This document shows, piece after piece, positions 1 to 18,999 of a stretch of 20,000 bases of DNA. The position numbers were made by a program, and so were the translations under genes. Origin of the DNA: an uncultured virus (IMG/VR IMGVR_UViG_3300020045_008339) (taxonomy: Duplodnaviria; Heunggongvirae; Uroviricota; Caudoviricetes); the IMG/VR virus record IMGVR_UViG_3300020045_008339; one strand, 5' to 3'. Under the pieces are notes generated by a model. That model ran no database searches. It was not told the DNA's origin and saw only the letters and a list, made by a program, of their open reading frames with translations. Each line of letters opens with the position of its first letter. Within the stretch, counting starts at the first letter, position 1.

Positions 1-3000
1 TTCAGCAGAATACTTCTTACGCTGCCATGCAGTAAAACTTTCGTTCAATTTTTGAACCTCTTTAGTAAGTACAGCTTTTTTCTTGAAGATGGGGTCGCCT
101 GAAAGTTCTGCGGCCATTGCTCCCATATCAACATCATCTTCCGCAATATCCTTCATCCTACGCTGTATAGCACCACCCAATTTTAACTGTGCAATGAACT
201 TAGCTTTAGTATTCACCAATTCGTACATTGATGCATCCAGTGTACGCTCCGTAGCATAGTAATAAGCCTGTACCTTATTGTCACGGTGCATCTTCGCCAT
301 TATGTTCATCTGGCGTTCAAACCTGCCGTTCCTCTGTTCCAAGTCAGCAGGTTTCCAAGTAATATCAAGATGGTGGCCAGCGATTACCCTCTTCTGTACA
401 TTCACGCCAACACCCATTTTACGGGTACTGCCAATAAGTACACGAACATCACCATTGTTTACCCTCTCATAAAGTTTTTCCCTCTTGCTCCTACTGTCAT
501 GGTCATGGATAAACTCTATTTCTTCTGGGGCAATACCCAATTCTATAAGCGATTTTTTCAAGGCATTGTAAACATCAAAACGTACAGCAGTATTAGCCTC
601 ACGCACAAGGTTGTCAAAGTCGGCCTCCGTAATGTCAAGGTACTTACCTGTACCATCATCTTCTTTGGCAAGCAGCTTCGTTTTTATTTGGGAAAGTGCA
701 GGCTTTTTACCCCCTTCGCCAAAACTCTCACCAAACACTTCTATCATTTCTGTATCACTAAGCATCCCTTCATCTTCCAAGAAATTGTAAAGGTTAGTAA
801 CCTGGTCTTTTGTCTTTGGAGTGCCAAGGTCACAGAAAACAAGTTGAGTGCCCTTGTATGGCGTTGAATCAACGTACTCTTCCAATATGTTACGGGCAGC
901 AGCTTCTATCTTGCTTCCCTCGCCTGCATCCGCATCTATCAAACGTGGGTCAACGGAAAGTTTCTTTGCAAAAGTTGTGGCCAGTACAGCGTAGGAAGGA
1001 TTAACACCCTTTTGTTCATCATAGCCATTTTCAAGTCCTAGAGTTTCCTTGTAAGCGTTACCCTTTGTTGCAATGTATTCCTGCAACATGCCTATGTATT
1101 CCAATTGGGAATTGGTAGGCTCAATCTTAACCAGTGTATGAATGGCTTTTGGCCTATCAAGTACAATGTTGTTTGCATTGCGTACATCCGCAATTTCCTG
1201 ATACATGGTTATAAGTTCAGGTAAGTTCACAAACTGCCTGAACCTGCTTACCTCTTTGAACCTGCCCATGTAATATTCAAGGTCGGTAAAGTCCTCTGCA
1301 AAAAGAGCAGCCCACTGATCAAAAGTCCTTATGCCTAATTCAAGCATCTTGTTTGGACGGAGGTACTTGAACAAAAGGTACAGTTCGGCCATTGTGTTTG
1401 ATATAGGCGTACCCGAAGCGAACAGGATACCTTTGTCGCCACCGTTAAGATTTTGCAGGTAACGGCAAGATATAAGCATGTTGAACGCCCTCTTACTGCC
1501 TATCATGTTACCTAAGCCACGCACATTCCTTTTCTTGGTAATAAATTCAAGGTTCTTGAACTCTTGGCTTTCATCAACCATCATGAAATCAATACCCAAC
1601 TGGCTAAAGTCCAGAATATCTTCATCCTTCTTTACATTCTTCAAATTGGCAATACGCTGCCTGTAATTGGATAGCCTATTTTCCAAACCTTTCAATTCCT
1701 TCTTATCAGTAATGCCCCTCATTTCATCTTCAATCTCACTGCATAGTTCATCAATCAACTTAACCTGTATTTCAACAGGCATTGGGATTGCGTTAAGGTT
1801 CTCATGCGTAAGTATAATTGCGTCCCAATCGTTTGTGGCAATTTGGGAAAGAAGTCTTTTCCTGTTTTCAGGTTTGAAATCATTCTGCGAAGGGAACAGG
1901 ATTTTTGCCAATGGGTAAGCCTTCCTGAACTCTGCTGCAAACTGTGGTATCTGTGATTTAAGACCTGTTATCAATGGTTTCTTGAACACACCAAGCCTCC
2001 TGCCTTCCATTGCGGTGGCAATCATCATCAATGTTTTACCAGAACCAACAATGTGGTCGGCAATACCGCCCTTCGTAGTAACAAAACGCCACACGCCATC
2101 CTTCTGGTGCGGCCTCAATTCAAAACCAAGCATACCCGGCAACTGTAGATGGGAACCATCGTACTGCCTAAGTATAGTTGTGTTGTAAACCTTATTGTAA
2201 ACTTCCTGTATATTATTACGGATGGTTTCATCTTCGTACTTCCATTGGTCCCATAGGTTGCGTAGCTTCTTATAGTTGTCTTTAGCTACTGCTGTATCGG
2301 TTTCATCAATATAAGTCTTACCTTCCCTGTCTGTGTACTTGACAATTGGCTCTATACCATTAAGGGCATGTTCAACAATCCACGAAGCCTTCTTTCTTGA
2401 AGTGGAAAAAGCATCGCTCTTTGCTGATTCACTCATACTAACAGTATAACTATCATTGCTCCTTGAGTAACGTATCATCAAAGAATTGTCACTCATAACA
2501 TGCTGCAAGAACTGTTTCAGGAACGCAGTTGGCAACCAACGGGCATTCATTGGGCTGTAAATATCTATAGCCTCAATATCTGCTGGCTGCACTTTCTGCA
2601 ATTCCGAAACATTATGCTCCATCCTTGCATCTTTCGCCTCCTGTAGCTTCTGTTTGACATTGCCAGACAGATATTCCTCTCTACTTACAAAAGTATTATT
2701 AGGCTGCTCGAATATAGCACCACCCTCCCTAGTTTCATCAATCAACACTTGCTCTGCAGATTTACCAAGCAGTTCCCCAATCCTGTGCAAATTGAGATTG
2801 CCAAACTCTTCAAGTGACACCAATATTGCATCATGCACATTATCAACCTTGTCAAGTTTTTTAACTGGTTTGATAGTACGCTGTGTGAAAACATCAGAAG
2901 GAACATAGCGGCCGCTTTCATCTTTCTTTTCCAATGCAAGGATGGTCCACTGGTCAGCATCCTGCTTAACAAGTGTGTAATTATCCTTTGCATTCAAACG

Positions 3001-6000
3001 GCCAAACTGCTTAACAAAATCGTCGTAAACACCTTTGAGAGCCTTTCTTGTATTGGTTACGGCAAAATCGTTGTAGCCATTAAGTTCCTGATAGAACAGT
3101 TTATTTACAAAAGCCCTTATCTTGGTAAACAGTGGGGCCTTTTCCCTTTGCTCCTTTCCGAGCCTCAATTTTTCAACTGCACGAATATTGAACATGTCAG
3201 CAGACAATCCAACACTTTCAAGTTTTTCTGAATCAACAACCCCGTCCCTGATACGGTCAGGATTTATACCTGCCGCCCATGCTTTTGCATCCAGTTCCTC
3301 GTCCTTGTAAATATCACCAGTAACCCTACCTACATCACCAGAAGGGAGTACAACGATATTGCCTATCTTATCGTACTCTTCATTATTTACATAGTCGCTG
3401 GTTTCTTTTTTTACACGTTCGTTTTTTTGCTTCTGTTCCTCTGTGAAAAGTTCTTTCGTGAATATCTTGCCAATAGCTGTGTTGATGGCAGATTCAAGGT
3501 CAACACCTTTTCCTGAAAGGTTGAAGCTGTCATTTGAATAGAGGCCACCCAACTCAACCTTTCCAAGCATCATATCTGGATTGATATGGAAATATGAATT
3601 GTACGATACTGGCGTACCATTAATGGTAGTTGATTTTGATTTTACAAAAGACTGGTCAAGTATTTTTGTTTCGCCAATATCATATTTGCGGATGAAGATA
3701 ATATCTGCAACAACCTCCGTTCCTGCCGCAGCTTTGAATGTTGTGTCTGGCAAACGTATAGCACCAATCATTTCACCTTGCTCCGCAATCAGTTCCCTTG
3801 TTTCCTGACTTTTGGAACTGTCCATCGTTCCCTTTGAAGTAACGAAGGCAACAACACCACCCGGCCTAACAAGGTCAAGCCCTTTTGCAAAGAAATAATT
3901 GTGTATGCTTTTTGATGCAGACTGGTAGCGTTTGTCCTTACTTGCAAACATTGGGTCGAAAACTGATGTGCTGCCAAAAGGCACATTGGAAACAACAATA
4001 TCGTAATGGTTTTCTGGCAACCTTGCATCCTGCAAACCTTTGATATGAACATCGGCTAATGGATAAAGCTGCTTGAGCAACCTACCTGTAAGTTCATCAA
4101 TTTCAACGGCAGTTATTTCAGAGTTGGAAGACATTGCCTGTGGCATGGCAGCAATGAAGTTTCCCTTACCTGCGGAAGGCTCAAGGAAAGAACCACCCTT
4201 GAAGCCAGCAAGTGCAAGACCGTGCCATATAGATTTGGTAACAACGTGAGGCGTAAAGTGGGCATTGAGAACGCCAGCCTTTATCCCCTTCAACAAACCC
4301 TTTGCTCCTGTAGGGTCGAACAATTTAATTGCATCATGAACAGCTTGCACCTTGTCACGGTAGCGTTCATCAATTTCTTTCCATCCTTTTTCTGCTGGGT
4401 CTAACAGTATTTCTTTAAGTCCACCAAAACCAACATATTTGGCAAGCACAGATTGTTCATCAGGATTTGCCAATCTACCTGTTGATTCCAAATCAAACAA
4501 AAGTTTCAATGCTTCAATATTATTATTGAACATTATATTTTTGTTCCAAGTGGATTGCTCCTTAAAGTCTGTAGGGATGGTGTAATTCATAAGCCGAACT
4601 GCTGCGTTGTTTCCGGCCAAGCTATTTCCCTCGCCTCCGATTGGTTCAGTCCTGATGCTATCAGCATTTCCATTTTCTGGCTGTACTCCTTCTCCGCTTT
4701 CTGTACTGTTGCTATCAGTTTTCCCTCCCCTTTCAGTTGGTCGTACAGTGGTTTTTTGTAATCCTTTATCAGGTTTAGCAGCATCGTTCCGTCTGTTCCC
4801 AGACTTTCCGCTTCCTCCTGACTGTTCTGTATCACCTTGTAATGTGCCATCGTCGTTTGGTTTAAATATTTCATCGTACCTTTTCTCAAACAGTACCATT
4901 AAATTTTGTTTCTCCGCCTTGCTTCTTGCTTCACTAGGTAATTCTATACCAAGAATCCTTTCCAATGGTTGTGAATAATACCTGTTATTCCATGCACCCG
5001 TAACACTGGAATCATTAACAAGCCCTTCAAAATTACGGGTAACAAAATTGTTTACCATCGTGTACAGGTACTTTGGCAAATAATCAAAATCCCTTGTGCT
5101 CAAAAATTCCTGCTTAACAAAATCAGCAATCGTATCAACATCAGGCGACTTCAAAATATCCAGTGCATCAATTTTGTTGCCTTCCTGATAGTTGGCAAGG
5201 ACACCGCTTACTACGCTATCCAGTTTTTCCTGCCACGCCCACTCTATACCTGGCCTTTCATAAATGGTATTATAAACATCCGCAACCATTTCGGCCACCA
5301 GTTCATCACCATTGGGCAATCCTTCCTGTGCAGCCCTACGCTGCATGTAATCAAAGAACAATAGATGCTGGGCTTCCTGTGCATCCTGTGCAGCCATATC
5401 AATCTGGTCTATCCTTTTTTGGATAGCTTGAGCAGCAAGTTCCAATTCCTTCTTTTCATCCTTGTTACGGGTAGCCTTCTGCTGGGAAACAAGTTCCTTC
5501 AATTCCTTTTGCAACGGCTCCACTTTACCCTGATGCTCTGCAATAAATTCATCGTTCACTTCATTTATCGCAGAAACATTCCTGTCCAGCATTTCCACAA
5601 GAGGAGGAGCAACAAATTTGTACTCACCTTCTTCAAACATTTCTGTTTGGGCTGATGGTTTGCCCTGAATACGTTCCAGTTGCTTGTAAAGGCTATTCAG
5701 TTCATTTTTGATTTTTTGCACAGCCCCTTTCTCACGCTTGGTTGCAACCTCTCTTTGGGTAAGGTCAATCTCTGCACTAAATAACTTTTCATTTGCATTT
5801 CCTTCGGCAGTGGCTCCAAACAAATCAGGAGTGGAATTTGAAATAGTTTTTTCAAGGGACTTGATTTTAGTTTTCAGTTTCTTCTCTGCCGTAGCAAGCT
5901 GCTTCTGTTTTTCATCAATCATGGCCATTACAGCCTTTTCCTCATTGGTCAGTCCAGATAACCTACTGACTTCCTGTTCTGCTGTATCTCCTTCGAGTTC

Positions 6001-9000
6001 TCCACCAGTTCCTTCAAGGCTTCCTTGTCCCCCTGTTTCCTCTGGTTGTTTTTCTCCTTTATCTGTAGAGATATTCTCTCCAACCCATCCAGCAAGGAAG
6101 AGTTGTTTTTCTGTGTCGTTAAGTTCGTTGTCATTTTCTATTAGGTTTTTTATCTCTGCCTGTTGTGATTCCGTTAAGCCAAACTGTAATTTTTCTCCTT
6201 CGCTAGATTCCAATATAACGGGCTTATTGTTATTTTCCGAATTATCGAAAACAACAACTGAAACATCTGGGAACTGCTTAAGAAAATCAATCCTGCCATC
6301 CTGTGCATTGGTGGCCCTTATAAAGTATTCAAGACGTACTACTCTTCTATCCTTGCCCTTATGATACCTCTTAATGATGTTGGCGAAGGCTTGTGTCGGT
6401 ACATTGTAAACAAGATTTACATGAACCGCTTTGCCGTTACCAGTTGCTTTCTCAACAAAGGTAACCAATTTTTCGTTATCAGTAAACACACCGTCCCAAA
6501 CGAAAGACCTATCAGCCTTTGCACCTGTCATTACAGATGATTTGCCCACACCGGGACCACCAATAACAAACGATACTGCATCATAGTCTGGTGAAGTAAT
6601 CAACTTGTCATATACGGAGTTTAAAATAACTGCCATATCATAGTTGTACTTTTCTGGAAAGGCTGCATCATAGTCTGGTATGAAAGTCCTGATTTTATCA
6701 GGGTCGGCCACGCCTTCAAAAGAAGCAAGGTAATTATCTACAACTTCGTTATGTTGTCCTTCGGTAAGGAGGAACTTTTGTCCTTTAGTTTTTTCGTTGC
6801 CATCGCCAACAGGTTTGCCATCAGTGTTTTCCTTACTTCCTTCGGGAACTTTACCATCATCTGGTAAAACGGTATCGTCCTCCTGTTCGCCTTGAATGTC
6901 GTTGTCGGTTGTTTCATCAATTAATGCTTTAATGTTATCAATAACTTCATCTGGGAATGCTGCTGCAAACTGTTCATCAAATTCTTCCCTATTTGCTTTG
7001 TAATCTTCCTGAAAATTTTCTGGGAAAAATTCATTATCAAAACCTTCATCAAACCTTTCTGTCATGAACGCTTCAAAGTTCACAGGCCATTGCTCTGGTA
7101 TTTCATCAAAGGCACGTTGAGGCTCAAATTCTCCCCACACAAGCAGTTCATCTTCTGGCATTTCATCAACAACTTCCGCAGCTTCTTCCTGAATATCCAT
7201 GTACGCCTCAATAGGAACACCTATACGGTTATTTGTCTTTCCTGCACGTTGCACGAAATCAATATAGCCGCTATTGTACTGCCCTTCCAATGCATCAAGC
7301 ACATCAAAAGAATGGGCATTGGGTTTTCTTTTGGCAATAGCCTTCAACCCTGAACGTACATAAGTTGCAGGGATACCCAAATCAACCTTGGGCTCAAATT
7401 TATCTGAATCGTTAAGTGAACGCTCCAATTGTGGAAGGAAGGAATTGTAAAAAGACTGGAACTCTTCCGACCTGTTTTCAAGACCAGCACGTTTGCTAGT
7501 ATCACTTTCCATCTTTACTGATGGACGTTTCATTTTTACGCCAGCTTCATCAACAATATCAAAGTTCCTTTTACCACCTTTGCCAGACCTTGTTCTTATG
7601 GTGTCTGTATATTTAATGGTTGCACCTATTTGGTTTGCCAAGTCATTGGCTTGCTTCTCAATCTGTGAAAGTTTTTTTGTTGCATTAGCAGGTGTCCTCC
7701 TGTGTTCATCACGCAGGTTCATCAACGTGCTAATAGTAGCATCGTTTTCGTTTGACAAAATATCGTCCAGTAAATCCTCTGCTTTTGAAACAGAAGAAGG
7801 AGTGCCGTTACCAGCACCACCTTCTGTTTTTTCTAGTGGCCCCTTTTGCTGCCCCCCGTCCTTCCCCCTACCATTCTGGTTGCTGGGTTCTTGGTTGGGT
7901 AACTGCTGCTGGGACCTCCGGGCTTCTTGGTCACTGTCGCTTTCGGACTGCTGCTGCCTTTGCCCATTTTGGGTTTGATTCCTGCCATGACTGTTGGTTT
8001 TTGATGAAGAAATATGTTCTAAAAGTTTTCTTGATGTATCTAATTGATCTTGAATATCGCTCTTTTTACCACCGTCTTTATACTCTACACCTCCCTTGAA
8101 CTTAGTTAATGCTTTTTCAAGTAAATTAATATTTTCTTTAAGTTGTTCAATCTTTGCTTTCTTTTCAACATCGGTCGAAGAATTAAAATCTAATAATGAT
8201 TGTTTTACACTTTCATCACCCGGATTAGCACTGGTATCTTCTGGGTTCAGTTCAATAGGATTGCTTATATCTTCTGGCTCACCCCTGATAATACTATTAA
8301 CGCCAGCTATAAGTGATGTATCGTCAATAGGAAGTTCCTCCGGACGCTCTGTTATAATCTCCAATTCTTCTGGGGTGAAACTGTCAAGGAAACTATCCAC
8401 AAGTTCCGTTCCCCTTACTTCTTCACTGGCCAATATTGTAGCAATATCATTTCGCCTTCCATCAATCTTGTCTGCTGCACTTTGGGCAACTACCTTAACA
8501 TCATCGTCTGCCACACCTACATTTCTATTTGCAGAAGGATTGATAATAGCATTCTGTATGGCCAATGCCTCTTCCGTATCCTGATTGATAATATCAATTT
8601 GTGACTGCAATGGTTCATCTGCAATAAGTTTGTTATTATGCCTTATACGGTACTCCTGTGCAGCAAGTGTTGCAGCCTCCTTTTGTGTCAAAGGAACTTC
8701 CACTCCATCACGAATTTTTGTTGTTGGCATTTTGCTTACAATCTTCTCCATCGTGTTTACCGCACGGATATTCCTGTCAGCTTCTTCCTGTGTTATTTCG
8801 CCAGTAGCCAAACTCTTATTAAAATACGCCCTATAAGTATCAGGGTTCATGCCAGCTTCAAAAAGGCTTTCCTTCAATATATTGCTCCTGTCACGTCCCC
8901 TTCTCATGCCAGCACCGAAACCAAGGCCCATTGTTCCAATGGCTGTTTGCACAAATGTTTCAAGCATACTGTTACCAAGTTCGCCCGGCGTTGTATCCTT

Positions 9001-11307
9001 TCCAAGCATAACCTTATCGGCAATGGCAGTAATTGGGATGGGTACAAGTTCCTCCGCAGATTCTTCGGCAATAACAGAGAGAGCAGTCTTGCTACCTGCT
9101 TTTAGGCCATCAAGTATAGCACCCTGCAAACCCTTAGCCTTAACTGCTGCTTCAAAAGTTTTGAAAGTGACATTTTCGCCAGCTTCCAGTATTCCCTTCC
9201 CGAATATTTTGCCAGTAAGGTTGGCTGGTGATAAAATGTTTTCAGATAAACCTTGTGGCAATGAAGTAATAAAAGCATAACCATGCCTCACTTTTTCATC
9301 GCTGGTATATTTTGATGCATTCTGGTACCCCTGTTCGTAAGCCGCCAATGTTCCTGCTGCTGTAGTAGTAGAGAACTGCAACGCCTTTTCAAGTTTCTGG
9401 TACTTGCTCAAAGCAGCCTGTGTTTCTTCTACAATCTGTGCAGCCCTAGTCATACCGTCAACACCTTTCAATGCTCCTGCACCCTTAACTATAGCCTTAC
9501 CTGCTGCAAGTTCTGCACCAAGTGTAACAGGAGCATTGAAAGCACCAAGTCCCATAAAATTACCAGTGGACGTACCAATGGTATTCAGTACACTTTCATA
9601 GTTGAAATTAAAATGGTTCTTGCCATCAGCACCTTTCTGCAAAAGTTTTTGGTTCTCTGGGATGAAGCCGTAGTTTTCCAAACGGTTCTGTATAAGTTCA
9701 TTTGTCTTGTCAGCATAAGCCTTTGACGCAAATATCCTATTAGCACCCTGCCCAATACCAGACCACACATCATCAATACCAGAAGCTACGTTGGATATAA
9801 AACCCTTAACCCTGATAGGGTCAGCACCAGTGTTCCAACCGATACCCATTTGCTCCTTGTAGTTCTTCTGTATATCCTTCGCTTCATCAATAGTAATAGG
9901 GTCGCCCTTTGCGTTCATTGTCTTAACAATCGCTTCCAAATCTTCATCACTGGCACTTGTACCAAAAATACTATGTAGCATTCTCCTTCCATAACCAACT
10001 GCTGGCACACCTGGTACTGCAATATTCGATTCAACAGCATATTCAATCTGCCTACGGTTGGCAAGCTGGTTAATCATGTTTATACGCTGCTGTCTTTTTA
10101 CCAATTCAGGAAAGTTCTTTTTGAAAGTTCCATCAATACCCTTCATAGTGCCTTCATATTCTTTCAGGGAATCAAAATATGAGGAAATATTTTTGTCGGC
10201 AAGCAGGGTATTCAATTTTTGAAGTTCTGCTACCGTTACCTGTGGCTTGCCGCCTGTTTTAAATGCCGCCGCATCTGCTTCACGCTTCATCATCAATGTT
10301 TGTGCCTCCGCTAATTTCTTAGGGTCGGCCATCCTGATTTTTTCCGCCAGATCATCCTGCATAAAACCCATTACAGCATCCCTGCCATCCATCCAGTTCC
10401 TTGCCTGTAAGGTTTGCTTTGTTTCAAGTTCGTTGTTTGTTTTAGCAACATTCAAAGCAGTGATCTTAGCTGTATCGTCAGATACTTTATTGTCGCCCAA
10501 CAACTGCCTCTTGAGTACGCCAACCTTCATAATGGCATCCTTGTCCATAGTGATAGGTACACCTTTGAAAACCTGTTTTGTAATAGCCTTGTTACTAACT
10601 TGGGATATTGATTTTTTTAGGTCATCAAGGTATTTTTGCTTCTCTTTTTGTACGGCATCTATAGCTGGGTCTATTTGCACACGCATAGCAGCACCTTCAT
10701 AACCACCAGAGGGGATGTGTAACTTCTTTTTTTCTTCAAGCTCTACTATTTCTTCCGTAAGAGCTTTTATCCTTTCGTTAGCATAATTTTTTATTACACC
10801 AAAATCATCGCCGCCAGTAATTTGCCTACGGCGATATTCCTTCTCATCCTGTTTATTGGGCATGTGGCCACCAGCAATACCTGTATTTTGAATTTGCTGG
10901 ATAGCGGAGATAGAAAATTTGTCTGTTGGTTTTTGTTGGCTAGAAATGCCATCTATGGAGAAACGATTCCAGTTATCGTAATCCTGTTCAAGGAACGATT
11001 TGGCTTTCTGTGTTTCATCTTCTTTTTTAGCAGCAAAAGTATCATCAACTTTTTTAGCTACAGCAGTTCCGCCACCTGCTTTTTCAATCAGCTTCGATTC
11101 CGCTTCCTTTTCTGCCAATAAGTCTAAAGAGGAAATCTTTGAAGAGCCACCAGTAGAAGGCTGGTCGCCAGTTTTTTTTTTTTGAGTTTCTCCAAGCAAT
11201 TCTAATGTGGAAGGTTTGCCCTCCGCTTGCTCAATCAGGTTCTTATCACTGATACTTTCATTGATAAGGTCGAGAGAACTTGGTTTCGGTCTTGTTGCTT
11301 TTGACAT
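1..11307 (-). CDS. Giant polyvalent virion/ejection-type protein (DarB-like): zeta-toxin-like kinase + N6-adenine DNA methyltransferase + SNF2-like helicase; >=3769 aa, truncated by the left window edge
   Basis: ATG at 11307-11305, 2 nt after the stop of the 579-aa gene, starting MSKATRPKPSSLDLINE. The same frame was open wherever I translated it and reads ...EVQKLNESFTAWQRKKYSAE at position 1. The track lists no stop-terminated ORF in this frame. Motifs GGPGVGKS, FLEPSAGKGNF, NVPFG, DHIVGSGKT, DESQ, SGTP and QRNGRFER are all in this frame. Confidence 0.93.
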   Translation of the reverse strand, partial: MSKATRPKPSSLDLINESISDKNLIEQAEGKPSTLELLGETQKKKTGDQPSTGGSSKISSLDLLAEKEAESKLIEKAGGGTAVAKKVDDTFAAKKEDETQKAKSFLEQDYDNWNRFSIDGISSQQKPTDKFSISAIQQIQNTGIAGGHMPNKQDEKEYRRRQITGGDDFGVIKNYANERIKALTEEIVELEEKKKLHIPSGGYEGAAMRVQIDPAIDAVQKEKQKYLDDLKKSISQVSNKAITKQVFKGVPITMDKDAIMKVGVLKRQLLGDNKVSDDTAKITALNVAKTNNELETKQTLQARNWMDGRDAVMGFMQDDLAEKIRMADPKKLAEAQTLMMKREADAAAFKTGGKPQVTVAELQKLNTLLADKNISSYFDSLKEYEGTMKGIDGTFKKNFPELVKRQQRINMINQLANRRQIEYAVESNIAVPGVPAVGYGRRMLHSIFGTSASDEDLEAIVKTMNAKGDPITIDEAKDIQKNYKEQMGIGWNTGADPIRVKGFISNVASGIDDVWSGIGQGANRIFASKAYADKTNELIQNRLENYGFIPENQKLLQKGADGKNHFNFNYESVLNTIGTSTGNFMGLGAFNAPVTLGAELAAGKAIVKGAGALKGVDGMTRAAQIVEETQAALSKYQKLEKALQFSTTTAAGTLAAYEQGYQNASKYTSDEKVRHGYAFITSLPQGLSENILSPANLTGKIFGKGILEAGENVTFKTFEAAVKAKGLQGAILDGLKAGSKTALSVIAEESAEELVPIPITAIADKVMLGKDTTPGELGNSMLETFVQTAIGTMGLGFGAGMRRGRDRSNILKESLFEAGMNPDTYRAYFNKSLATGEITQEEADRNIRAVNTMEKIVSKMPTTKIRDGVEVPLTQKEAATLAAQEYRIRHNNKLIADEPLQSQIDIINQDTEEALAIQNAIINPSANRNVGVADDDVKVVAQSAADKIDGRRNDIATILASEEVRGTELVDSFLDSFTPEELEIITERPEELPIDDTSLIAGVNSIIRGEPEDISNPIELNPEDTSANPGDESVKQSLLDFNSSTDVEKKAKIEQLKENINLLEKALTKFKGGVEYKDGGKKSDIQDQLDTSRKLLEHISSSKTNSHGRNQTQNGQRQQQSESDSDQEARRSQQQLPNQEPSNQNGRGKDGGQQKGPLEKTEGGAGNGTPSSVSKAEDLLDDILSNENDATISTLMNLRDEHRRTPANATKKLSQIEKQANDLANQIGATIKYTDTIRTRSGKGGKRNFDIVDEAGVKMKRPSVKMESDTSKRAGLENRSEEFQSFYNSFLPQLERSLNDSDKFEPKVDLGIPATYVRSGLKAIAKRKPNAHSFDVLDALEGQYNSGYIDFVQRAGKTNNRIGVPIEAYMDIQEEAAEVVDEMPEDELLVWGEFEPQRAFDEIPEQWPVNFEAFMTERFDEGFDNEFFPENFQEDYKANREEFDEQFAAAFPDEVIDNIKALIDETTDNDIQGEQEDDTVLPDDGKVPEGSKENTDGKPVGDGNEKTKGQKFLLTEGQHNEVVDNYLASFEGVADPDKIRTFIPDYDAAFPEKYNYDMAVILNSVYDKLITSPDYDAVSFVIGGPGVGKSSVMTGAKADRSFVWDGVFTDNEKLVTFVEKATGNGKAVHVNLVYNVPTQAFANIIKRYHKGKDRRVVRLEYFIRATNAQDGRIDFLKQFPDVSVVVFDNSENNNKPVILESSEGEKLQFGLTESQQAEIKNLIENDNELNDTEKQLFLAGWVGENISTDKGEKQPEETGGQGSLEGTGGELEGDTAEQEVSRLSGLTNEEKAVMAMIDEKQKQLATAEKKLKTKIKSLEKTISNSTPDLFGATAEGNANEKLFSAEIDLTQREVATKREKGAVQKIKNELNSLYKQLERIQGKPSAQTEMFEEGEYKFVAPPLVEMLDRNVSAINEVNDEFIAEHQGKVEPLQKELKELVSQQKATRNKDEKKELELAAQAIQKRIDQIDMAAQDAQEAQHLLFFDYMQRRAAQEGLPNGDELVAEMVADVYNTIYERPGIEWAWQEKLDSVVSGVLANYQEGNKIDALDILKSPDVDTIADFVKQEFLSTRDFDYLPKYLYTMVNNFVTRNFEGLVNDSSVTGAWNNRYYSQPLERILGIELPSEARSKAEKQNLMVLFEKRYDEIFKPNDDGTLQGDTEQSGGSGKSGNRRNDAAKPDKGLQKTTVRPTERGGKTDSNSTESGEGVQPENGNADSIRTEPIGGEGNSLAGNNAAVRLMNYTIPTDFKEQSTWNKNIMFNNNIEALKLLFDLESTGRLANPDEQSVLAKYVGFGGLKEILLDPAEKGWKEIDERYRDKVQAVHDAIKLFDPTGAKGLLKGIKAGVLNAHFTPHVVTKSIWHGLALAGFKGGSFLEPSAGKGNFIAAMPQAMSSNSEITAVEIDELTGRLLKQLYPLADVHIKGLQDARLPENHYDIVVSNVPFGSTSVFDPMFASKDKRYQSASKSIHNYFFAKGLDLVRPGGVVAFVTSKGTMDSSKSQETRELIAEQGEMIGAIRLPDTTFKAAAGTEVVADIIFIRKYDIGETKILDQSFVKSKSTTINGTPVSYNSYFHINPDMMLGKVELGGLYSNDSFNLSGKGVDLESAINTAIGKIFTKELFTEEQKQKNERVKKETSDYVNNEEYDKIGNIVVLPSGDVGRVTGDIYKDEELDAKAWAAGINPDRIRDGVVDSEKLESVGLSADMFNIRAVEKLRLGKEQREKAPLFTKIRAFVNKLFYQELNGYNDFAVTNTRKALKGVYDDFVKQFGRLNAKDNYTLVKQDADQWTILALEKKDESGRYVPSDVFTQRTIKPVKKLDKVDNVHDAILVSLEEFGNLNLHRIGELLGKSAEQVLIDETREGGAIFEQPNNTFVSREEYLSGNVKQKLQEAKDARMEHNVSELQKVQPADIEAIDIYSPMNARWLPTAFLKQFLQHVMSDNSLMIRYSRSNDSYTVSMSESAKSDAFSTSRKKASWIVEHALNGIEPIVKYTDREGKTYIDETDTAVAKDNYKKLRNLWDQWKYEDETIRNNIQEVYNKVYNTTILRQYDGSHLQLPGMLGFELRPHQKDGVWRFVTTKGGIADHIVGSGKTLMMIATAMEGRRLGVFKKPLITGLKSQIPQFAAEFRKAYPLAKILFPSQNDFKPENRKRLLSQIATNDWDAIILTHENLNAIPMPVEIQVKLIDELCSEIEDEMRGITDKKELKGLENRLSNYRQRIANLKNVKKDEDILDFSQLGIDFMMVDESQEFKNLEFITKKRNVRGLGNMIGSKRAFNMLISCRYLQNLNGGDKGILFASGTPISNTMAELYLLFKYLRPNKMLELGIRTFDQWAALFAEDFTDLEYYMGRFKEVSRFRQFVNLPELITMYQEIADVRNANNIVLDRPKAIHTLVKIEPTNSQLEYIGMLQEYIATKGNAYKETLGLENGYDEQKGVNPSYAVLATTFAKKLSVDPRLIDADAGEGSKIEAAARNILEEYVDSTPYKGTQLVFCDLGTPKTKDQVTNLYNFLEDEGMLSDTEMIEVFGESFGEGGKKPALSQIKTKLLAKEDDGTGKYLDITEADFDNLVREANTAVRFDVYNALKKSLIELGIAPEEIEFIHDHDSRSKREKLYERVNNGDVRVLIGSTRKMGVGVNVQKRVIAGHHLDITWKPADLEQRNGRFERQMNIMAKMHRDNKVQAYYYATERTLDASMYELVNTKAKFIAQLKLGGAIQRRMKDIAEDDVDMGAMAAELSGDPIFKKKAVLTKEVQKLNESFTAWQRKKYSAE
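170..2170 (-). other. SNF2-like (SF2) helicase domain of the giant protein
   Basis: LRPHQKDGV, Walker A DHIVGSGKT (~2032-2058), Walker B variant MVDESQEFKNL (DESQ at 1564-1575), motif III ASGTPISNTMAELY, TQLVFCDLGTP, GSTRKMGVGVNVQ, motif VI LEQRNGRFERQ. Boundaries are approximate. Confidence 0.9.
3560..4590 (-). other. N6-adenine DNA methyltransferase domain of the giant protein (DarB/methylase-helicase type)
   Basis: LAKYVGFGGL, NAHFTPHVV, SAM-binding FLEPSAGKGNF (~4156-4188), AVEIDELTG, catalytic DIVVSNVPFG (NVPF at 3976-3987), IHNYFFAKGLDLVRPGGVVAFVTS, GAIRLPDTTFKAAAGTEVVADIIF. Boundaries are approximate. Confidence 0.9.
4587..4850 (-). CDS. Nested +1-frame small helical protein, TnpV-like (87 aa), inside the giant ORF
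   Basis: MAHYKVIQNSQEEAESLGTDGTMLLNLIKDYKKPLYDQLKGEGKLIATVQKAEKEYSQKMEMLIASGLNQSEAREIAWPETTQQFGL. The start context AAACCAAACGACG-ATG has A at -3, -6, -12 and -13. The host frame here is a disordered G/N/E/T/S linker. The track starts this ORF further upstream at 4889. Confidence 0.65.
   Translation of the reverse strand: MAHYKVIQNSQEEAESLGTDGTMLLNLIKDYKKPLYDQLKGEGKLIATVQKAEKEYSQKMEMLIASGLNQSEAREIAWPETTQQFGL
5949..6134 (-). CDS. Nested +1-frame helical peptide (61 aa) directly downstream of the zeta-like domain; candidate antitoxin
   Basis: A-rich start context CCTAATAGAAA-ATG. Amphipathic sequence SLLDGLERISLQIKEK...EALKELVENSKEIQ. The host frame is linker-like (TDKGEKQPEETGGQGSLEGTGGELEGD). 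Confidence 0.5.
   Translation of the reverse strand: MTTNLTTQKNNSSLLDGLERISLQIKEKNNQRKQGDKEALKELVENSKEIQQNRKSVGYLD
6200..6740 (-). other. Zeta-toxin-like P-loop kinase domain of the giant protein
   Basis: Walker A VSFVIGGPGVGKS (6538-6561), followed by FVWDGVF, AVHVNLVYNVPTQAFANIIKRYHKGKDRRVV and VVVFDNS. This resembles the zeta/AAA_33-like nucleotide kinase pattern. Confidence 0.65.
6738..6917 (-). CDS. Nested +1-frame basic helical peptide (59 aa) between the acidic segment and the zeta-like domain
   Basis: MKQPTTTFKANRRTIPFYQMMVKFPKEVRKTLMANLLAMATKKLKDKSSSLPKDNITKL with AT-rich upstream sequence. The host frame is a linker (DIQGEQEDDTVLPDDGKVPEGSKENTDGKPVGDGNEK). Confidence 0.45.
   Translation of the reverse strand: MKQPTTTFKANRRTIPFYQMMVKFPKEVRKTLMANLLAMATKKLKDKSSSLPKDNITKL
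7833..7988 (-). CDS. Nested +1-frame small basic K/G/S/P-rich peptide (51 aa)
   Basis: MAGIKPKMGKGSSSPKATVTKKPGGPSSSYPTKNPATRMVGGRTGGSKRGH*, with no acidic residues. Start context CAAAAACCAACAGTC-ATG. The host frame is a Q/N/G/R-rich linker. It falls below the ORF-track length cutoff. Confidence 0.45.
   Translation of the reverse strand: MAGIKPKMGKGSSSPKATVTKKPGGPSSSYPTKNPATRMVGGRTGGSKRGH
11172..11183 (-). repeat. A12 homopolymer (T12 on +) near the start of the giant ORF
   Basis: Coding strand reads CAA AAA AAA AAA ACT (QKKKT) at codons 42-46. Confidence 0.95.
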
Positions 11308-11309
11308 AT

Positions 11310-13049
11310 TTATTCGTTGTCGTCTGTTATAGCTGATTGGTCGTCCTTGTTTGTTACTTTATTGTTCAGTGCCTTTGCTGACTGAAAAGTTGAAATCCTA
11401 GTACCTGTACCGTTTGCACCTTTCAATTCACCATCCTGATAACCACCTTGGTCAACAAGTTTCTGAATATAATCCGTCACCTTAATACCTGCTCTCAAAG
11501 CATCTTTAGCAAGTTCTGCTTTTGTATATCCATGCCACTTGCCTTGCTTATCCTTCATCCACCAATTATCAAGCGGCTTGAAATAATACCCCGGCTTCGT
11601 TGATTCAACACCAGATTTACCCTTAACAGGTAAATCTGTTTTTAACGGTTCCAATGGAATTGTCTTACCATCCTTGCCAACACCACCAAGCATTGCTTTC
11701 ACTGTTGGTGTTAAATCATCTGCCGCCACGAACAAATTACCAAACTGCGTTTTCTGAACCTTGCTCAACACTTCGTTGAAAGGATTGTTAGCCATTATTT
11801 CATCATCCTTTGGTCCAAGAGCATCTGTTTTGGCCCTGTAGTACCCAGCCATTGCTAATGACTTCCTTCTGTTTGCTGCCGCATCCTCATTCAGCTTGTT
11901 TACTTCCGCATTGCCCTTCTTAAGTTTTTCATCAGCTTCAAACCTTTCCTTGTCGAAAGACGATAAAGCACCTTCCTTGTACTCATGGGCAATATACATT
12001 GCTTTTTGAAAATCTTCCCTTGTAAATTCATTATCTAAAATAGGGTTACCATTACTATCAAGCCTTACCTTCTCAAATTTCTTCCCATCTGGCCTGTGCT
12101 TATTAGCTTTATCTATAACATCGTTCCATTGGCCATACTCCTTAACCTTGTCCTTGTATGAACGGGGGTTATTCAAAAGTTCATCGGTATATTGTTGAAG
12201 GACATTCTTCGCAACCTCACCATGGCCATCAACCAAAGTTTCATTATAGGTTTTTTCAAGTTCATCAAGGTTCGTGTGTACCTCTGTCTTGTTGTAATAC
12301 TTGGCTAACGGGTCGTTTGACTTTGCAGGTGCAGGAGTACCGACGCCAGAAACAACGGGCTTTGCCCCTTTTACTGTAGAAGTTGTTGTAGTGGTTTTTG
12401 CAGGAGCACCACCTTTCGCTGTAGTAGTAGTTTTTGTGGTTTGAGGAATCTGTACCTCTTGCCCATCAGATGTTGTCATACCGATTGGCTTAAAGAAAAG
12501 TTCCCTGTTCATGGTAGGGTCTTCCTTATAAGGCTCATACAGTTCAGAAGTATTCTGCTTCAATCTTTCACGCTGGCCATTCACATGGTCAATAGCTTTT
12601 TTCCTAGCCTCTGGGCCCTTTATTTTGGATGCTGCGGCCAAATCCTCCGTAATTGTCTTGTAGTTTGTCTTGGCATAAGCATTGAACTCGTTGAACTCAC
12701 GGATATTTTTTTGTACGGCGGCAAACGCTTCACGGTCTTCAAGAATAGCAGGGTTCTTAATCAACTGTTCAGTAATTAAATCTATTTTGTCCCTTGCTTC
12801 TTTTTGGTTCTCTGGCAGTAGTTTATCGAAGTCTGTTTGCTGGTTGGCAATCATACCAAACACCTTGTCCCTGTCAGCAATCTTCTGGGCATGGTTCATA
12901 TCGGCCACTTGGTTACGCCTCCTGTTAAGGGCATCCAATGATGCTACGGCAGGAGCAAAGCTGCCTGTGCCCAATTCAAATGTTGCACCGCCAGAAGAAC
13001 CTGCGGCCAAGTCACCATTACCTTGATAATTTAAAATATCTGCTGGCAT
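11310..13049 (-). CDS. Putative internal virion/DNA-ejection protein (579 aa)
   Basis: Long ORF with A-rich start context, charged helical composition and an internal T/K/P-rich linker. It lies between a small ejection-like gene and the giant gene, matching the small-medium-large order of podovirus ejection genes. Confidence 0.6.
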   Translation of the reverse strand: MPADILNYQGNGDLAAGSSGGATFELGTGSFAPAVASLDALNRRRNQVADMNHAQKIADRDKVFGMIANQQTDFDKLLPENQKEARDKIDLITEQLIKNPAILEDREAFAAVQKNIREFNEFNAYAKTNYKTITEDLAAASKIKGPEARKKAIDHVNGQRERLKQNTSELYEPYKEDPTMNRELFFKPIGMTTSDGQEVQIPQTTKTTTTAKGGAPAKTTTTTSTVKGAKPVVSGVGTPAPAKSNDPLAKYYNKTEVHTNLDELEKTYNETLVDGHGEVAKNVLQQYTDELLNNPRSYKDKVKEYGQWNDVIDKANKHRPDGKKFEKVRLDSNGNPILDNEFTREDFQKAMYIAHEYKEGALSSFDKERFEADEKLKKGNAEVNKLNEDAAANRRKSLAMAGYYRAKTDALGPKDDEIMANNPFNEVLSKVQKTQFGNLFVAADDLTPTVKAMLGGVGKDGKTIPLEPLKTDLPVKGKSGVESTKPGYYFKPLDNWWMKDKQGKWHGYTKAELAKDALRAGIKVTDYIQKLVDQGGYQDGELKGANGTGTRISTFQSAKALNNKVTNKDDQSAITDDNE

Positions 13050-13061
13050 AATTTATTTTTA

Positions 13062-13850
13062 TTACCTACCATAACTGCCAGTTTCAAACATACCCCTCAT
13101 GTTCATTCCTCCAATAGGAAGGATGCCCAGGTTGTTGAGCATTTCGTTTGAACGTGGTGTGTAATTTATCTGTGGCGTAGTGGTGGACATGAAAGGTACT
13201 CTGTTAGGGTCTAGGTTTAGTTTTGGCATCTTGGCTAACGGTTGTGGCTGTGTCCATCCATTCGTAGGTGCAGTCGCTGTACCCATCGGTCTTGCTTCAC
13301 CTGCTGTGGGTGCAAGTTTTGCTGTTTCCATTCCTGCCCAAGAACCGATAGCGGCATTTGCTCCACTAAAAACATCCTGATTACCTTCCCTTGAGAGGCT
13401 GGATGCTTCCCTAGCCCTGTCAGCCCAAGGAGCATACTTGTTTATTCCCCAAACCTTATCCTGTTCTTCTGCAAGTTTTTCATTGCTCCGAACAAGCATA
13501 TTAATATTCCTGAACTTGGCCTCGTCTTCCGCAAAAGCCATCTTGCTTGCACCAGTATTGTAATCATCGTAAATGTCCCCAATCATGTTTGGGTTGCCAC
13601 CAGACTTGAGTATAGCATCAATGGAGGCTGTTAAAGCTCTATCGCTGTTTGTTGTGAAAAGTTGTTTCGCACTATCAGAAAGACCAGAACCAGCCCTGCT
13701 TTCAGATAAAGCCTGATTGTCCAATATAGGTTTTGCTATCTGGGCTTCTGGACGGATGTTCTTTTCAGCCATCCTTTTGGCTTTACCTTTTTTGATAAAA
13801 CCATTAACGGCCTGTCCAACTCCCAAAGCTGCTGTTGCTATTAGTGGCAT
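13062..13850 (-). CDS. Putative small DNA-ejection/pilot protein (T7 gp14-like organisation, 262 aa)
   Basis: Hydrophobic Gly/Ala N-terminus MPLIATAALGVGQAVNG followed by a basic KKGKAKR patch, a helical middle, a second Gly/Ala segment (VFSGANAAIGSWAG) and a low-complexity tail. Confidence 0.6.
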   Translation of the reverse strand: MPLIATAALGVGQAVNGFIKKGKAKRMAEKNIRPEAQIAKPILDNQALSESRAGSGLSDSAKQLFTTNSDRALTASIDAILKSGGNPNMIGDIYDDYNTGASKMAFAEDEAKFRNINMLVRSNEKLAEEQDKVWGINKYAPWADRAREASSLSREGNQDVFSGANAAIGSWAGMETAKLAPTAGEARPMGTATAPTNGWTQPQPLAKMPKLNLDPNRVPFMSTTTPQINYTPRSNEMLNNLGILPIGGMNMRGMFETGSYGR

Positions 13851-13854
13851 ACTG

Positions 13855-14301
13855 TTAAGTGCTTAATACTGTTATTGATTTTGCTACAATGGCCATTCCG
13901 TTTTTTTGAAGCCATTTTATAGCCCTTTCATTATACGAAAACAAATATACTTGAAAGTCGTTCCCTACAATTGATTTTATGTTTTCAAAGAAAACAGACG
14001 AGTACGTTTTTCTGTATGCCTTGTTGAGGGCAAAACTTATGAGCAACCTGTTATTTACGTCATATACAAAATATCCAATAGGTATTTCGTCAATTGATCT
14101 TTTATGATAAACGATATAAGCACCAACACCCCCGTTAGTATAACTCTGTATTTTCTCACATACATTCCAAGCAGCCTCTTCAAGTGTCTTAACATTGGCA
14201 TCTTTATCAAACAATTCAAGCAAAGCATAATCACCTTCAAAAGATAACCTGATATATTTTAGCAAGTCGTACTTATGGACTGCTCTTGTAGTCATTTTCA
14301 T
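13855..14301 (-). CDS. GNAT-family acetyltransferase-like protein (148 aa)
   Basis: PIGYFVY...LISFALNKAYR and C-terminal NERAIKWLQKNGM match GNAT motifs. Its position just before the ejection genes is like that of T7 gp13-type genes. Confidence 0.7.
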   Translation of the reverse strand: MKMTTRAVHKYDLLKYIRLSFEGDYALLELFDKDANVKTLEEAAWNVCEKIQSYTNGGVGAYIVYHKRSIDEIPIGYFVYDVNNRLLISFALNKAYRKTYSSVFFENIKSIVGNDFQVYLFSYNERAIKWLQKNGMAIVAKSITVLST

Positions 14302-14310
14302 AAAAATATT

Positions 14311-14490
14311 TTACAATTCAAATTCACCATCTTCATTTACTTCCCCATCATCATCTGCCAGTTCCTCTATACCGTCGTCTTCATCATCACCCAGCATGGA
14401 GAAGTTTGTCCTAACAGTGTCCCTCAAGCACCTGCCTTTCTCAAAGCAGTATTCAGGAACTTGACAAAGCTGGCAGCACTCTGTTACCAT
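14311..14490 (-). CDS. Unannotated 59-aa microprotein with a Cys-rich head and an acidic tail
   Basis: MVTECCQLCQVPEYCFEKGRCLRDTVRTNFSMLGDDEDDGIEELADDDGEVNEDGEFEL*. The ATG overlaps the end of the upstream gene, the stop lies 9 nt before the GNAT start, and the ORF fills the only sizeable intergenic gap. Confidence 0.8.
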   Translation of the reverse strand: MVTECCQLCQVPEYCFEKGRCLRDTVRTNFSMLGDDEDDGIEELADDDGEVNEDGEFEL

Positions 14491-15482
14491 AACGGAATAA
14501 TTTCTTGAAGCTGTACAAAATGGTCCATATCTATCGGGTTCAAAAACTTGAACAGGTCAACCTTAGCATCGTCCCACAAAACTTTATTGTCCCTTGTAGA
14601 TAACCTACCTACATTTTGTCTATGAGCACCAGCGTAAAACGTTATTCCAAAATGCAATGTTGCTATAGCATAATCAGGAACCATTATCTCTCCATTTGGA
14701 TGTGTGCCACTGGATTGATAGGTAAGCACCAGTTCCTTTGGAAGGGGCTTGTTCCCGTGACGGGAAACAACGGCATCCGCAGCAAGCAGGTATATCCTGT
14801 TACTGTCAAAGTTGTGATTGAAATAGCCATACTCGTTCTGTATAAGGAAACGCTCGTCTGCCCTGTCGTAGCTACGTCCACAATGGTCACGCATCTTTAC
14901 CTTATTGGCTTCTGTATTCTTTACGCATCCACAAGTATTGAGTTCAAGGGAACAAACATTGTTTTTCTTTTCCTCAATAACCACCTTGTTCAATTCTTCA
15001 TCCCACACAGGATATTCCGAAACCTCTATAACCTCACCACTGCCCAACGTCTGATACCAAGTTTTGAGTACCACATCCTCCCCATTGAACTTTTCAGTCC
15101 TTGTCACAATTTTTGTTTCCTCAATACTACAAAGGCTTTGCCCACTACTGCACGTTGCACATTTTTTTGAAGTATCCTCAAAATCAATATCGGCAAGAAC
15201 CTGACCAGACAAAAGAAGTGGATGGTAACCAACGGTATCATGGACAGCTACACCAAGTATCCTGCTACAGTCTTTTGGTTTTTTTATGTACGGCCTACCA
15301 TCTTCGGCTATATGAACCTGAACAACAGTTTGCACTATTGAGTAAAGCGTTTTGAGGAACAGTTCACGCCATGCGGTTTGTGCATGGTAAAGGAAATTTG
15401 CAAACCATGCTTTTTTATTATTGAAGGCAGCAAGACAGTATTGCTCCGTTGCATCATTCAGTGTTGTTCCTACTTCGTTCAT
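14484..15482 (-). CDS. Putative structural (ring/head-tail connector-like) protein with Cys-rich insertions (332 aa)
   Basis: ATGA overlap with the upstream gene. Helical N-terminus, KPKDCSRILGV, LVLTYQS...GEIMVPDYAIATL, and inserts CATCSSGQSLC and CSLELNTCGC. The function is inferred from resemblance to ring proteins and from context. Confidence 0.5.
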   Translation of the reverse strand: MNEVGTTLNDATEQYCLAAFNNKKAWFANFLYHAQTAWRELFLKTLYSIVQTVVQVHIAEDGRPYIKKPKDCSRILGVAVHDTVGYHPLLLSGQVLADIDFEDTSKKCATCSSGQSLCSIEETKIVTRTEKFNGEDVVLKTWYQTLGSGEVIEVSEYPVWDEELNKVVIEEKKNNVCSLELNTCGCVKNTEANKVKMRDHCGRSYDRADERFLIQNEYGYFNHNFDSNRIYLLAADAVVSRHGNKPLPKELVLTYQSSGTHPNGEIMVPDYAIATLHFGITFYAGAHRQNVGRLSTRDNKVLWDDAKVDLFKFLNPIDMDHFVQLQEIIPLW

Positions 15483-16198
15483 GACTTGGCTTGCATTTTA
15501 TTGATTTCCGTTTCAATTATTTTGTTCGGGTTCCTGTCATTGCTCATGTCCACTATCATTCCCTGTGCTGCACCTTTAAACAGGTTTACACCAAAAGAAA
15601 TTATATCAGCCTGTTTGCCCAATGGTATTATAGCCTTGTCAGCATCTAGGCTCAACGCTGGGGCAAAATTTACGCCCCACTCTTTTGGCTCACAAATTGA
15701 AGTGGTAAACCCATGGACTTTTTTGCCTTGAACAAACCAATAGATGCTATTTGTTTTTGGCAAATGCTTTAAACTGTCTTTCTGGTCACGGTTAATCCTT
15801 ATCATGGATGATTCGCAATCGGATGGTTCAATGAGTTCAACAGATTGCACCCCATAACCCATGGTGTCAAATGGAAAAGGGAAAGGTGTTTCCTTCAATT
15901 CGCCAACATAGTGGGCATACTTACCACCACCCTTTACTTTTTCTACCTTCACAACCTCTTCAATTAACCAGTCTTGGCTAACATCAATGGTATAGTAACC
16001 AGTTTCCTCTTTTGCTAAACGTCTGGCTTTATCACTCTCTATCTCAAGCAACTTTCCATAGATAGCCCTAGCGGCAAATATGAAGTGCGGAAGTTCAAAA
16101 AAATCTTCGCTTGACTTCACATTCTGATAGTAAAGGTCCATTATCATCTGAGCGACATAACTCAATGACGATTCATTTATTTCTTCAACTTCTGCCAT
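15479..16198 (-). CDS. Putative structural (ring/connector-like) protein (239 aa)
   Basis: Clean ORF in the operon with a helix/beta-core/helix layout and C-terminal DMSNDRNPN. The function is inferred from context. Confidence 0.45.
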   Translation of the reverse strand: MAEVEEINESSLSYVAQMIMDLYYQNVKSSEDFFELPHFIFAARAIYGKLLEIESDKARRLAKEETGYYTIDVSQDWLIEEVVKVEKVKGGGKYAHYVGELKETPFPFPFDTMGYGVQSVELIEPSDCESSMIRINRDQKDSLKHLPKTNSIYWFVQGKKVHGFTTSICEPKEWGVNFAPALSLDADKAIIPLGKQADIISFGVNLFKGAAQGMIVDMSNDRNPNKIIETEINKMQAKS

Positions 16199-17591: not shown

Positions 17592-17592
17592 A

Positions 17593-18984: not shown

Positions 18985-18999
18985 TTTAGATTTTTTAGT

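Follow-up and report, generated by a model that had tools for sequence, protein, structure and literature searches.

Out-of-frame open reading frames (ORFs) inside a very large gene pose a simple question: are they genes, or are they shadows cast by the composition of the larger frame? We address this question in a 20,000-nucleotide stretch of DNA from an uncultured virus of the Caudoviricetes (IMG/VR record IMGVR_UViG_3300020045_008339), referred to here, at its full length, as the window. The gene for a giant polyvalent protein on its minus strand contains four ATG-initiated ORFs, at 7988-7833, 6917-6738, 6134-5949 and 4850-4587, which an earlier note on this DNA took for nested genes overprinted in the linkers between domains, with a separate one for every effector module. 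The ORFs are present on that strand where the note placed them, and all four are in the +1 frame: each starts at 2 mod 3, and the codons of the giant ORF start at 0 mod 3. We conclude that ORF 4850-4587 is a real nested TnpV gene and that the other three are most likely shadow ORFs, by-products of linker composition; we give this explanation as a whole a probability of about 0.85. The proposal of nested genes in linkers therefore stands for ORF 4850-4587, a real and conserved gene that reads in +1 through a linker between domains, and is unsupported for the remaining three.

The product of ORF 4850-4587 belongs to a recognizable protein family. In a scan of eight +1 peptides from the window, it matched the Pfam family TnpV (PF14198) with an E-value of 1.6e-5 and 25.3 bits, the gathering score being 27. 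The match covers positions 13-79 of the 111 in the profile; the window copy does not contain a full-length TnpV domain and lacks the canonical N-terminal and C-terminal segments, and from these comparisons it appears to be a short, divergent TnpV subfamily member. A hidden Markov model (HMM) made from 20 related nested peptides, with the window left out, found a sole match among 534 six-frame window segments, at 4590-4898 on the minus strand (E 1.2e-11), and the next-best segment reached E 0.078. When all 21 nested peptides were combined, the resulting profile matched 3725 protein clusters at E <= 1e-3, and nine of ten longer matches that were checked carried Pfam TnpV at 121-255 bits. Structure prediction with AF2 on the 21-sequence alignment gave a confident five-helix bundle with a mean pLDDT of 85.9 and a pTM of 0.71; Atlas language-model recognition scored the nested peptide at 2523, with the mark at 2300. 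Foldseek comparison of this fold with the PDB returned nothing at E <= 0.001. An upstream in-frame ATG at 4874 would extend the nested ORF to a 95-aa version, and comparison with the relatives supports the ATG at 4850, the one given in the earlier note, as the homologous start.

The same arrangement is found far beyond the window. Distant relatives were gathered through the conserved modules of the giant gene: the methyltransferase led to 20 IMG/VR loci and five genome-contig loci, and the helicase to 21 metagenome loci. With tblastn the window peptide matched four of the IMG/VR loci, every match lying +1 to the giant ORF of its locus; in these four, +1 reads as protein-like sequence with its own ATG, and frame 0 reads as a G/A/D/R/E-rich ‘linker’. 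Profile searches gave strong nested-ORF matches in 10 of the 20 IMG/VR loci (plus one weak) and in six of the 21 metagenome loci (plus two weak). The nested ORF is also present in four of the five genome-contig loci, all of them Clostridia genomes, and in two named plasmids, from Clostridium perfringens (NZ_CP102305.1, L047) and Monoglobus pectinilyticus (NZ_OY725736.1, L048), so that its carriers include viral contigs, metagenomes, Clostridia genomes and plasmids. The copies in the Clostridia genomes are canonical TnpV, those of L042-L045 and of L047 scoring 84-148 bits, and nested relatives in L006 (28.4 bits) and L007 (27.9 bits) pass the Pfam cut-off. Altogether, 25 other giant methyltransferase-helicase genes hold the nested ORF in the linker before the methyltransferase, in +1 each time, and it is intact in 26 of 26 copies (the window and the 25 loci), with ATG and stop conserved. 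An assembly or sequencing frameshift was ruled out as the source of the +1 relation, which is found in 25 independent loci, one of them a complete plasmid. We take the nested arrangement to be an ancient one that occurs widely among the methyltransferase-helicase polyvalent genes which phages, plasmids and integrative elements carry.

The two frames of the nested region evolve in different ways. L004 and L005 differ at 23 sites, distributed 4/4/15 over +1 codon positions 1, 2 and 3, with an omega of 0.12 in +1 versus 2.0 in frame 0; in L002 and L009 the differences are distributed 10/6/18, and omega is 0.33 versus 2.5. The close, gap-free pairs together span omega values of 0.12-0.38 for +1 and of 1.6-2.5 for frame 0, and frame 0 is the faster-evolving of the two in the relatives. 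Amino-acid identity in +1 exceeds that in frame 0 in 78 of 78 pairs; the alignments of distant pairs were fitted to the +1 peptides and so favour +1, a bias from which the close gap-free pairs are free. Despite its divergence, frame 0 stays open. It has no stops in 10 nested ORFs for which resampling with the codon usage of the giant gene expects 2.4-6.6 each (P(0) from <0.0005 to 0.08), and none in the 23 nested ORFs of a second count, in which a T at +1 position 3 that would create a frame-0 stop occurs at 0 of 697 risky sites versus 178 of 1440 other sites (Fisher p 8.7e-33, which is overstated because the 23 ORFs are related to each other). The nested region is truly dual-coding: selection on +1 acts on its protein sequence, and selection on frame 0 does no more than keep it open and hydrophilic. 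Checks of the kind proposed in the earlier note come out in favour of ORF 4850-4587: an HMM search of each peptide placed this one in the TnpV family, the +1 ORF is kept in 25 other loci, and per-frame dN/dS with stop depletion in the nested TnpV relatives shows a constrained +1 frame beneath a diverging frame-0 linker.

We considered how the nested frame would be read. The nested start codon is ATG in 22 of 22 copies, preceded in 14 of the 22 by a Shine-Dalgarno match of at least 5 bases, often AAGGAG, which is Lys-Glu in frame 0; among hosts that rely on Shine-Dalgarno sites, most have one here. A +1 stop precedes the nested ATG by one codon in L008, L024 and L047 and by 4-5 codons in three further loci. 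Together, the ATG, the Shine-Dalgarno sites and the near upstream stops make independent initiation a better reading than a programmed +1 ribosomal frameshift, by which ribosomes leaving the giant frame would make a truncated isoform with the N-terminal modules fused to TnpV. Such a shift would fit a relation that is always same-strand and +1, and it would fit the window copy, which has no Shine-Dalgarno site at 4850. That absence is in character, because none of the 11 ordinary window genes has such a site (their upstream regions are 63-80% A+T), and the host of this DNA is possibly one that does not use Shine-Dalgarno sites, perhaps Bacteroidota-like. With upstream +1 stops so near, however, there is almost no room for a conserved shift site, and TnpV is a stand-alone small protein elsewhere; we regard a frameshift as very improbable. 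More improbable still is that the TnpV frame is an untranslated fossil of a former gene or domain that persists unexpressed. The window copy is indeed short, divergent and below the Pfam cut-off, and we infer expression of the nested ORF rather than observe it directly, but a fossil would not explain purifying selection on +1 across lineages, the intact ORF with its conserved ends in every copy, or the confident predicted fold. The remaining alternative, that ORF 4850-4587 is a chance shadow and its TnpV match an artefact of composition, is already refuted. Its length is not beyond that of shuffled controls, and the +1 reading of a G/E/K/N/Q-rich linker does yield K/E-rich, helix-like sequence; yet the leave-one-out profile separates this segment from the next by E 1.2e-11 against 0.078, homologues occur at the same frame and place in 25 loci, and the selection tests agree. 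We thus favour a nested protein that would be translated from its own ATG on the mRNA of the giant gene, so that the 264 bases would be read twice, in frame 0 as a tether and in +1 as a folded small protein. The tether links the modules before it, the zeta-like kinase among them, with the N6-adenine methyltransferase and the SNF2 helicase (Table 1).

Table 1. Coordinates of the nested ORFs, the modules of the giant protein and the second nested family; positions are those of the window unless a locus is named.
Feature	Position	Strand	Description
Giant polyvalent protein gene	1..11307	minus	3769 codons inside the window; runs off the window's low end
Nested TnpV-like gene	4587..4850	minus	87 codons plus TGA stop; 264 bases; +1 frame of giant ORF
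Tether (frame-0 reading of nested-gene DNA)	4594..4860	minus	Hydrophilic, low-complexity; giant aa about 2150-2238; leads from upstream modules to methyltransferase
Zeta-toxin-like kinase match	6235..6510	minus	Giant aa 1600-1691; Pfam PF06414, E 1.7e-6, 28.1 bits (cut-off 22.3)
N6-adenine methyltransferase module	3508..4593	minus	Giant aa 2239-2600; Pfam Eco57I at aa 2431-2512
SNF2-type helicase module	313..2124	minus	Giant aa about 3062-3665; Pfam ResIII, SNF2-rel_dom, Helicase_C
+1 ORF, 51 aa	7833..7988	minus	Unsupported, probably shadow ORF; peptide rich in G, S, P, K
+1 ORF, 59 aa	6738..6917	minus	Unsupported, probably shadow ORF
+1 ORF, 61 aa	5949..6134	minus	Unsupported; least unlikely of the three
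Second nested +1 family	L014:9717-10004, L015:9741-10034, L016:9744-10025, L017:9672-9965, L018:9693-10058, L019:5027-5323		

What separates the ORF at 4850-4587 from the other three is not visible in their length or composition. By length the four rank 1st, 5th, 7th and 9th among the 16 +1 ATG-ORFs of at least 40 aa, and the longest +1 ORF (95 aa) is equalled in 60% of synonymous shuffles; in the comparison with codon-shuffled controls that had been proposed for them, the four are not beyond chance. Frame 0 beneath them is poor in hydrophobic residues, with F/L/I/M/V fractions of 0.02, 0.15, 0.16 and 0.12 versus 0.26 for the whole protein. Such hydrophilic linkers give open +1 frames automatically, because a +1 stop can arise only where frame 0 has T at codon position 2 and hence a hydrophobic residue. 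Given the frame-0 protein, the probability of meeting no +1 stop is 1.000, 0.20, 0.10 and 0.097 for the four ORFs; for shadow ORFs within the methyltransferase domain it is 0.036 and 0.010. An A/T-rich context upstream of the ORFs does not discriminate, because all 11 ordinary window genes have one too (63-80% A+T). The length, shuffle and codon-permutation tests are without power in this case, since they score the real ORF no differently from the others; only comparison across relatives told the real nested gene from the shadows, which is a lesson of method.

That comparison gives no support to the other three ORFs. They match no Pfam family (0 at E <= 1) and no PHROG, and across 49 loci (717,799 bases) they have no tblastn match below E 0.27. 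That best value belongs to 6134-5949, which has no homologue and an Atlas recognition score of 1615 (mark 2300) with no match; 6917-6738 has no tblastn match at E <= 1 in the same loci. Under 7988-7833, frame 0 contains a 36-codon run without T at codon position 2, and the openness of this ORF is fully determined by the hydrophilic frame-0 sequence. Homologous linkers occur in one protein only, P0003, where linker 1 contains a large inserted domain, a different, non-linker module stands at linker 2 (6917-6738), and linker 3 has five insertions or deletions. We also scanned 1816 alternative-frame segments of 47 giant ORFs for clusters more conserved than frame 0. TnpV-like sequences made up two of the clusters returned, with 15 and 4 members; L014-L019 yielded a second family just before the methyltransferase, and the few other clusters had 2-3 members each. 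The large clusters with better conservation than frame 0 are confined to the position ahead of the methyltransferase.

Each of the three is therefore improbable as a real gene, and it is hardly credible that all four ORFs are nested partner genes (antitoxin, inhibitor or chaperone), one for each effector module. This larger proposal can draw on the fact that all four are ATG-initiated, in +1 and at domain boundaries, and that one proved real. The boundary claim itself holds in part: two of the ORFs flank the Zeta_toxin match (aa 1600-1691) and the fourth ends before the methyltransferase homology (about aa 2239), but the ‘ejection-like N-terminus’ that was to precede the first was not verified, as a Pfam scan had no match in giant aa 1-1100. 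It can also draw on codon usage, the log-odds of 6134-5949 (+0.12) lying above every ordinary +1 shadow window (maximum -0.15), and on a deficit of +1 stops in the giant ORF, which has 175 versus 201 +/- 7 in synonymous shuffles. The codon-usage score is confounded by linker composition, however, and the deficit of stops is not focused on linkers. It is uniform along the giant ORF (observed/expected 0.87, 0.88 and 0.85 per third, and 0.98 in the other nine window genes) and may reflect a different codon-pair context in the giant gene. Against the proposal stand also the lack of any family or homologue for the three, the G/S/P/K-rich peptide of 7988-7833 with its openness probability of 1.000, the large insertions and deletions or the different module in the aligned linkers of P0003, and the absence of a conserved alternative-frame family from the other linkers of the 47 giant ORFs. 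In particular, the antitoxin foreseen for the zeta-like kinase did not materialize, as 6917-6738 and 6134-5949 match no antitoxin family in Pfam (E <= 1) or PHROG. The suggested role, in which the partner would render the cargo harmless and stay behind when the protein is injected, likewise gains no support.

Several points weigh against our own reading, besides the cautions given above with the pairwise identities and the Fisher test. The window peptide lies just under the Pfam TnpV cut-off and is 11-26% identical to its nested relatives. Selection on each frame was measured in distant relatives and not in the window's own copy, for which close-relative DNA was not found. The translation of the nested protein is something we infer from sequence, and its fold points to no particular function: in a wide VIA-align search the best structure was 2apl_A at Z 8.5, a value in the usual range for helical bundles, and the others reached Z <= 6.5. 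As to the other three ORFs, the case against them is absence of evidence, P0003 having been compared as protein only, and the codon-usage score of 6134-5949 (+0.12) exceeds that of the real nested gene (+0.06).

The position before the methyltransferase is occupied by a second nested +1 family in six high-GC loci (Table 1). Its members are about 94-121 aa long, lie directly before the methyltransferase, share six identical first residues in all, and in most are preceded by an SD-like GAAGGAG. In each of the 15 pairs conservation is higher in +1 than in frame 0, frame 0 has no stops, and AF2 predicts four helices (pLDDT 87.5). No relation to the TnpV-like family was detected by hhalign (probability 0.3%), and Pfam returned nothing significant. 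Two further +1 stretches just upstream of the methyltransferase fit neither nested family cleanly: L003:9489-9854, with a weak TnpV-like match (E 0.0099), and L012 at about 9750-9965, with a ‘MLEVFEE’-like stretch as in the second family. A tentative and rather unlikely extension is that small helical proteins read out of frame from the tether before the methyltransferase are obligatory partners of methyltransferase-helicase polyvalent proteins across bacterial phyla, with two families filling the role, the second of them, unrelated to TnpV-like, in proteobacterial-type loci. If this were true, the complete overlap would itself be functional, locking the partner to the giant gene and coupling its synthesis to the giant mRNA; the producer cell would make the partner as, for example, a chaperone, an inhibitor or a release factor; and the ‘disordered linkers’ of polyvalent proteins would generally be refuges of swallowed operon genes.

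The gene that houses the nested ORF is a polyvalent one. The complete giant protein, P0002, has 4721 aa and is encoded on a 72-kb contig; it combines many unrelated effector domains (Zeta_toxin, Eco57I methylase, SNF2 and Helicase_C) in one giant polypeptide, as polyvalent proteins of phages and conjugative elements do, and RadC (PF04002) is among its precomputed families. The methyltransferase module, directly downstream of the nested gene, is 30-43% identical to 24 relatives. P0003 has a like tether at the position of the window tether. At the position of the zeta-like kinase, P0003 has a different, shorter sequence with low-complexity linkers on either side, which suggests that modules are swapped at the boundaries of linkers. 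The giant gene is preceded by nine co-oriented genes (11310-19626, minus strand) among which PHROG matches are nearly absent, the sole one being a virion structural protein match (E 8.7e-6) at 16836-17591.

Closer relatives of this region were sought in several collections. Window positions 4400-8100 gave no blastn match among GenBank phages, and tblastn gave a single 64-residue match, in Pseudomonas phage Itty13. Among viral contigs, the central region found no relatives of the window, and whole-protein alignment found patterns in the N-terminus of which none was confirmed; central-region alignment to metagenome contigs likewise found no relative. A protein search with aa 1080-2260 returned just the window's own protein and P0003, with none among shorter proteins. 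The nested peptide of L005 had no tblastn match among plasmids and phages.

How might such an overlap have arisen? The earlier note offered, as an alternative to its main proposal, that the genes of a small operon merged into a single ORF in which small genes survived, and this fits ORF 4850-4587, since TnpV is stand-alone elsewhere and the frame-0 tether is low-complexity and fast-evolving. Flanking genes would have fused across tnpV, reading it in another frame as a tether; the TnpV frame would then be the older one and the tether overprinted on it. Stand-alone TnpV is common: in 22 of 36 plasmid records a ‘TnpV protein’ is the sole gene under the match, and Cohnella provides an example. Among the best 150 of the 3725 profile matches, none is a giant protein that carries TnpV in its own frame. 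The methyltransferase-helicase ORFs of L029 and L038 begin only a short way upstream of the overlap, which places the overlap in the N-terminal tail of that module. In methyltransferase-helicase ORFs that lack a large N-terminal extension, a short QLSLFD-like motif was noted at the beginning, in frame 0 just upstream of the overlapped tether (L029 at about 460-500, L032 at about 20-45 and L038 at about 7400-7440). This motif presumably resembles the beta-clamp-binding consensus, which we take to be QL[SD]LF.

The function of the nested protein can be discussed only tentatively. We put first, by analogy with Rz1 and Rz, an accessory partner of the methyltransferase-helicase module; next, a DNA-binding or regulatory factor of a mobile element that was trapped by fusion; and we leave a smaller share to something else. 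Co-folding of the TnpV-like peptide with the N-terminal module of the methyltransferase scored 0.00, which is neutral as to binding. Rz1 lies in the +1 frame of Rz, and DarB of P1 is a polyvalent protein comparable to the one described here. In the lambda Rz/Rz1 pair, as described in the accessible text of two reports, a small gene with its own start is likewise fully embedded in a larger phage gene (PMC5295617, PMC6139136). The Rz/Rz1 proteins are unrelated to the TnpV-like protein, and the two are known to form one complex, whereas for the window pair a partnership is a candidate reading; moreover, the host gene here is a polyvalent gene of >4700 codons in which the overlapped part is a tether and not a functional domain. 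TnpV (PF14198), a family of small helical proteins to which the window protein belongs, was first named in clostridial Tn4451/Tn4453; the known genes are stand-alone, and that of the window lies entirely inside another gene and without both canonical end segments. TnpV is found in Tn4451-like elements and, in the accessible text of the same source, is postulated to act in excision for its likeness to lambda Xis (PMC3158075). The host protein has the same giant mix of kinase, N6-adenine methyltransferase, SNF2 helicase and RadC-like domains as the polyvalent proteins of Iyer et al. 2017 (PMC5512222), in whose accessible main text there are 0 mentions of TnpV, overlapping, frameshift or linker, so that the theme appears there without a linker-nested gene. 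Viral overprinting, in the available part of its description (10.1101/229690), likewise places two selected frames on one DNA with the younger frame disordered; the usual case there is a small new gene inside an old one, whereas here the small folded gene would be old and the tether looks overprinted.

The earlier note expected standard annotation to miss such a gene, and ORF 4850-4587 is indeed one that it misses. In the two plasmids RefSeq treats the overlap in opposite ways. For NZ_CP102305.1 (L047, 8283-14201) RefSeq lists a 1972-aa ‘helicase-related protein’ and leaves the nested TnpV (85 bits) unannotated. In NZ_OY725736.1 (L048, 4160-7271) TnpV is annotated, and the giant gene is listed with a start 3.1 kb beyond the opening of its frame, although the PLSDB gene table used for this plasmid is incomplete and a pseudogene line may be missing. 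The unlisted 3.1-kb part holds what we take, by name only and with no family scan, to be an ArdC-N-like domain. RefSeq thus keeps the giant gene or TnpV and not both, so that polyvalent domain maps and TnpV gene counts are both affected. We found no published account of TnpV nested in a polyvalent gene in the literature on TnpV or on polyvalent proteins, as covered by titles and accessible text, and in PMC12084326 the words TnpV, overlap and nested occur 0 times. Nested genes, TnpV and polyvalent proteins have each been described before; these searches turned up no paper that brings the three together.

These results describe a fully nested same-strand pair, with both frames selected, that is conserved over phages, plasmids and integrative elements and from low-GC Clostridia to loci of 69% GC. 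Full overlaps that last so long are seldom seen except in small viruses, and annotation pipelines do not permit them. With this pair TnpV, a family without a tested function, gains a constant genomic partner.

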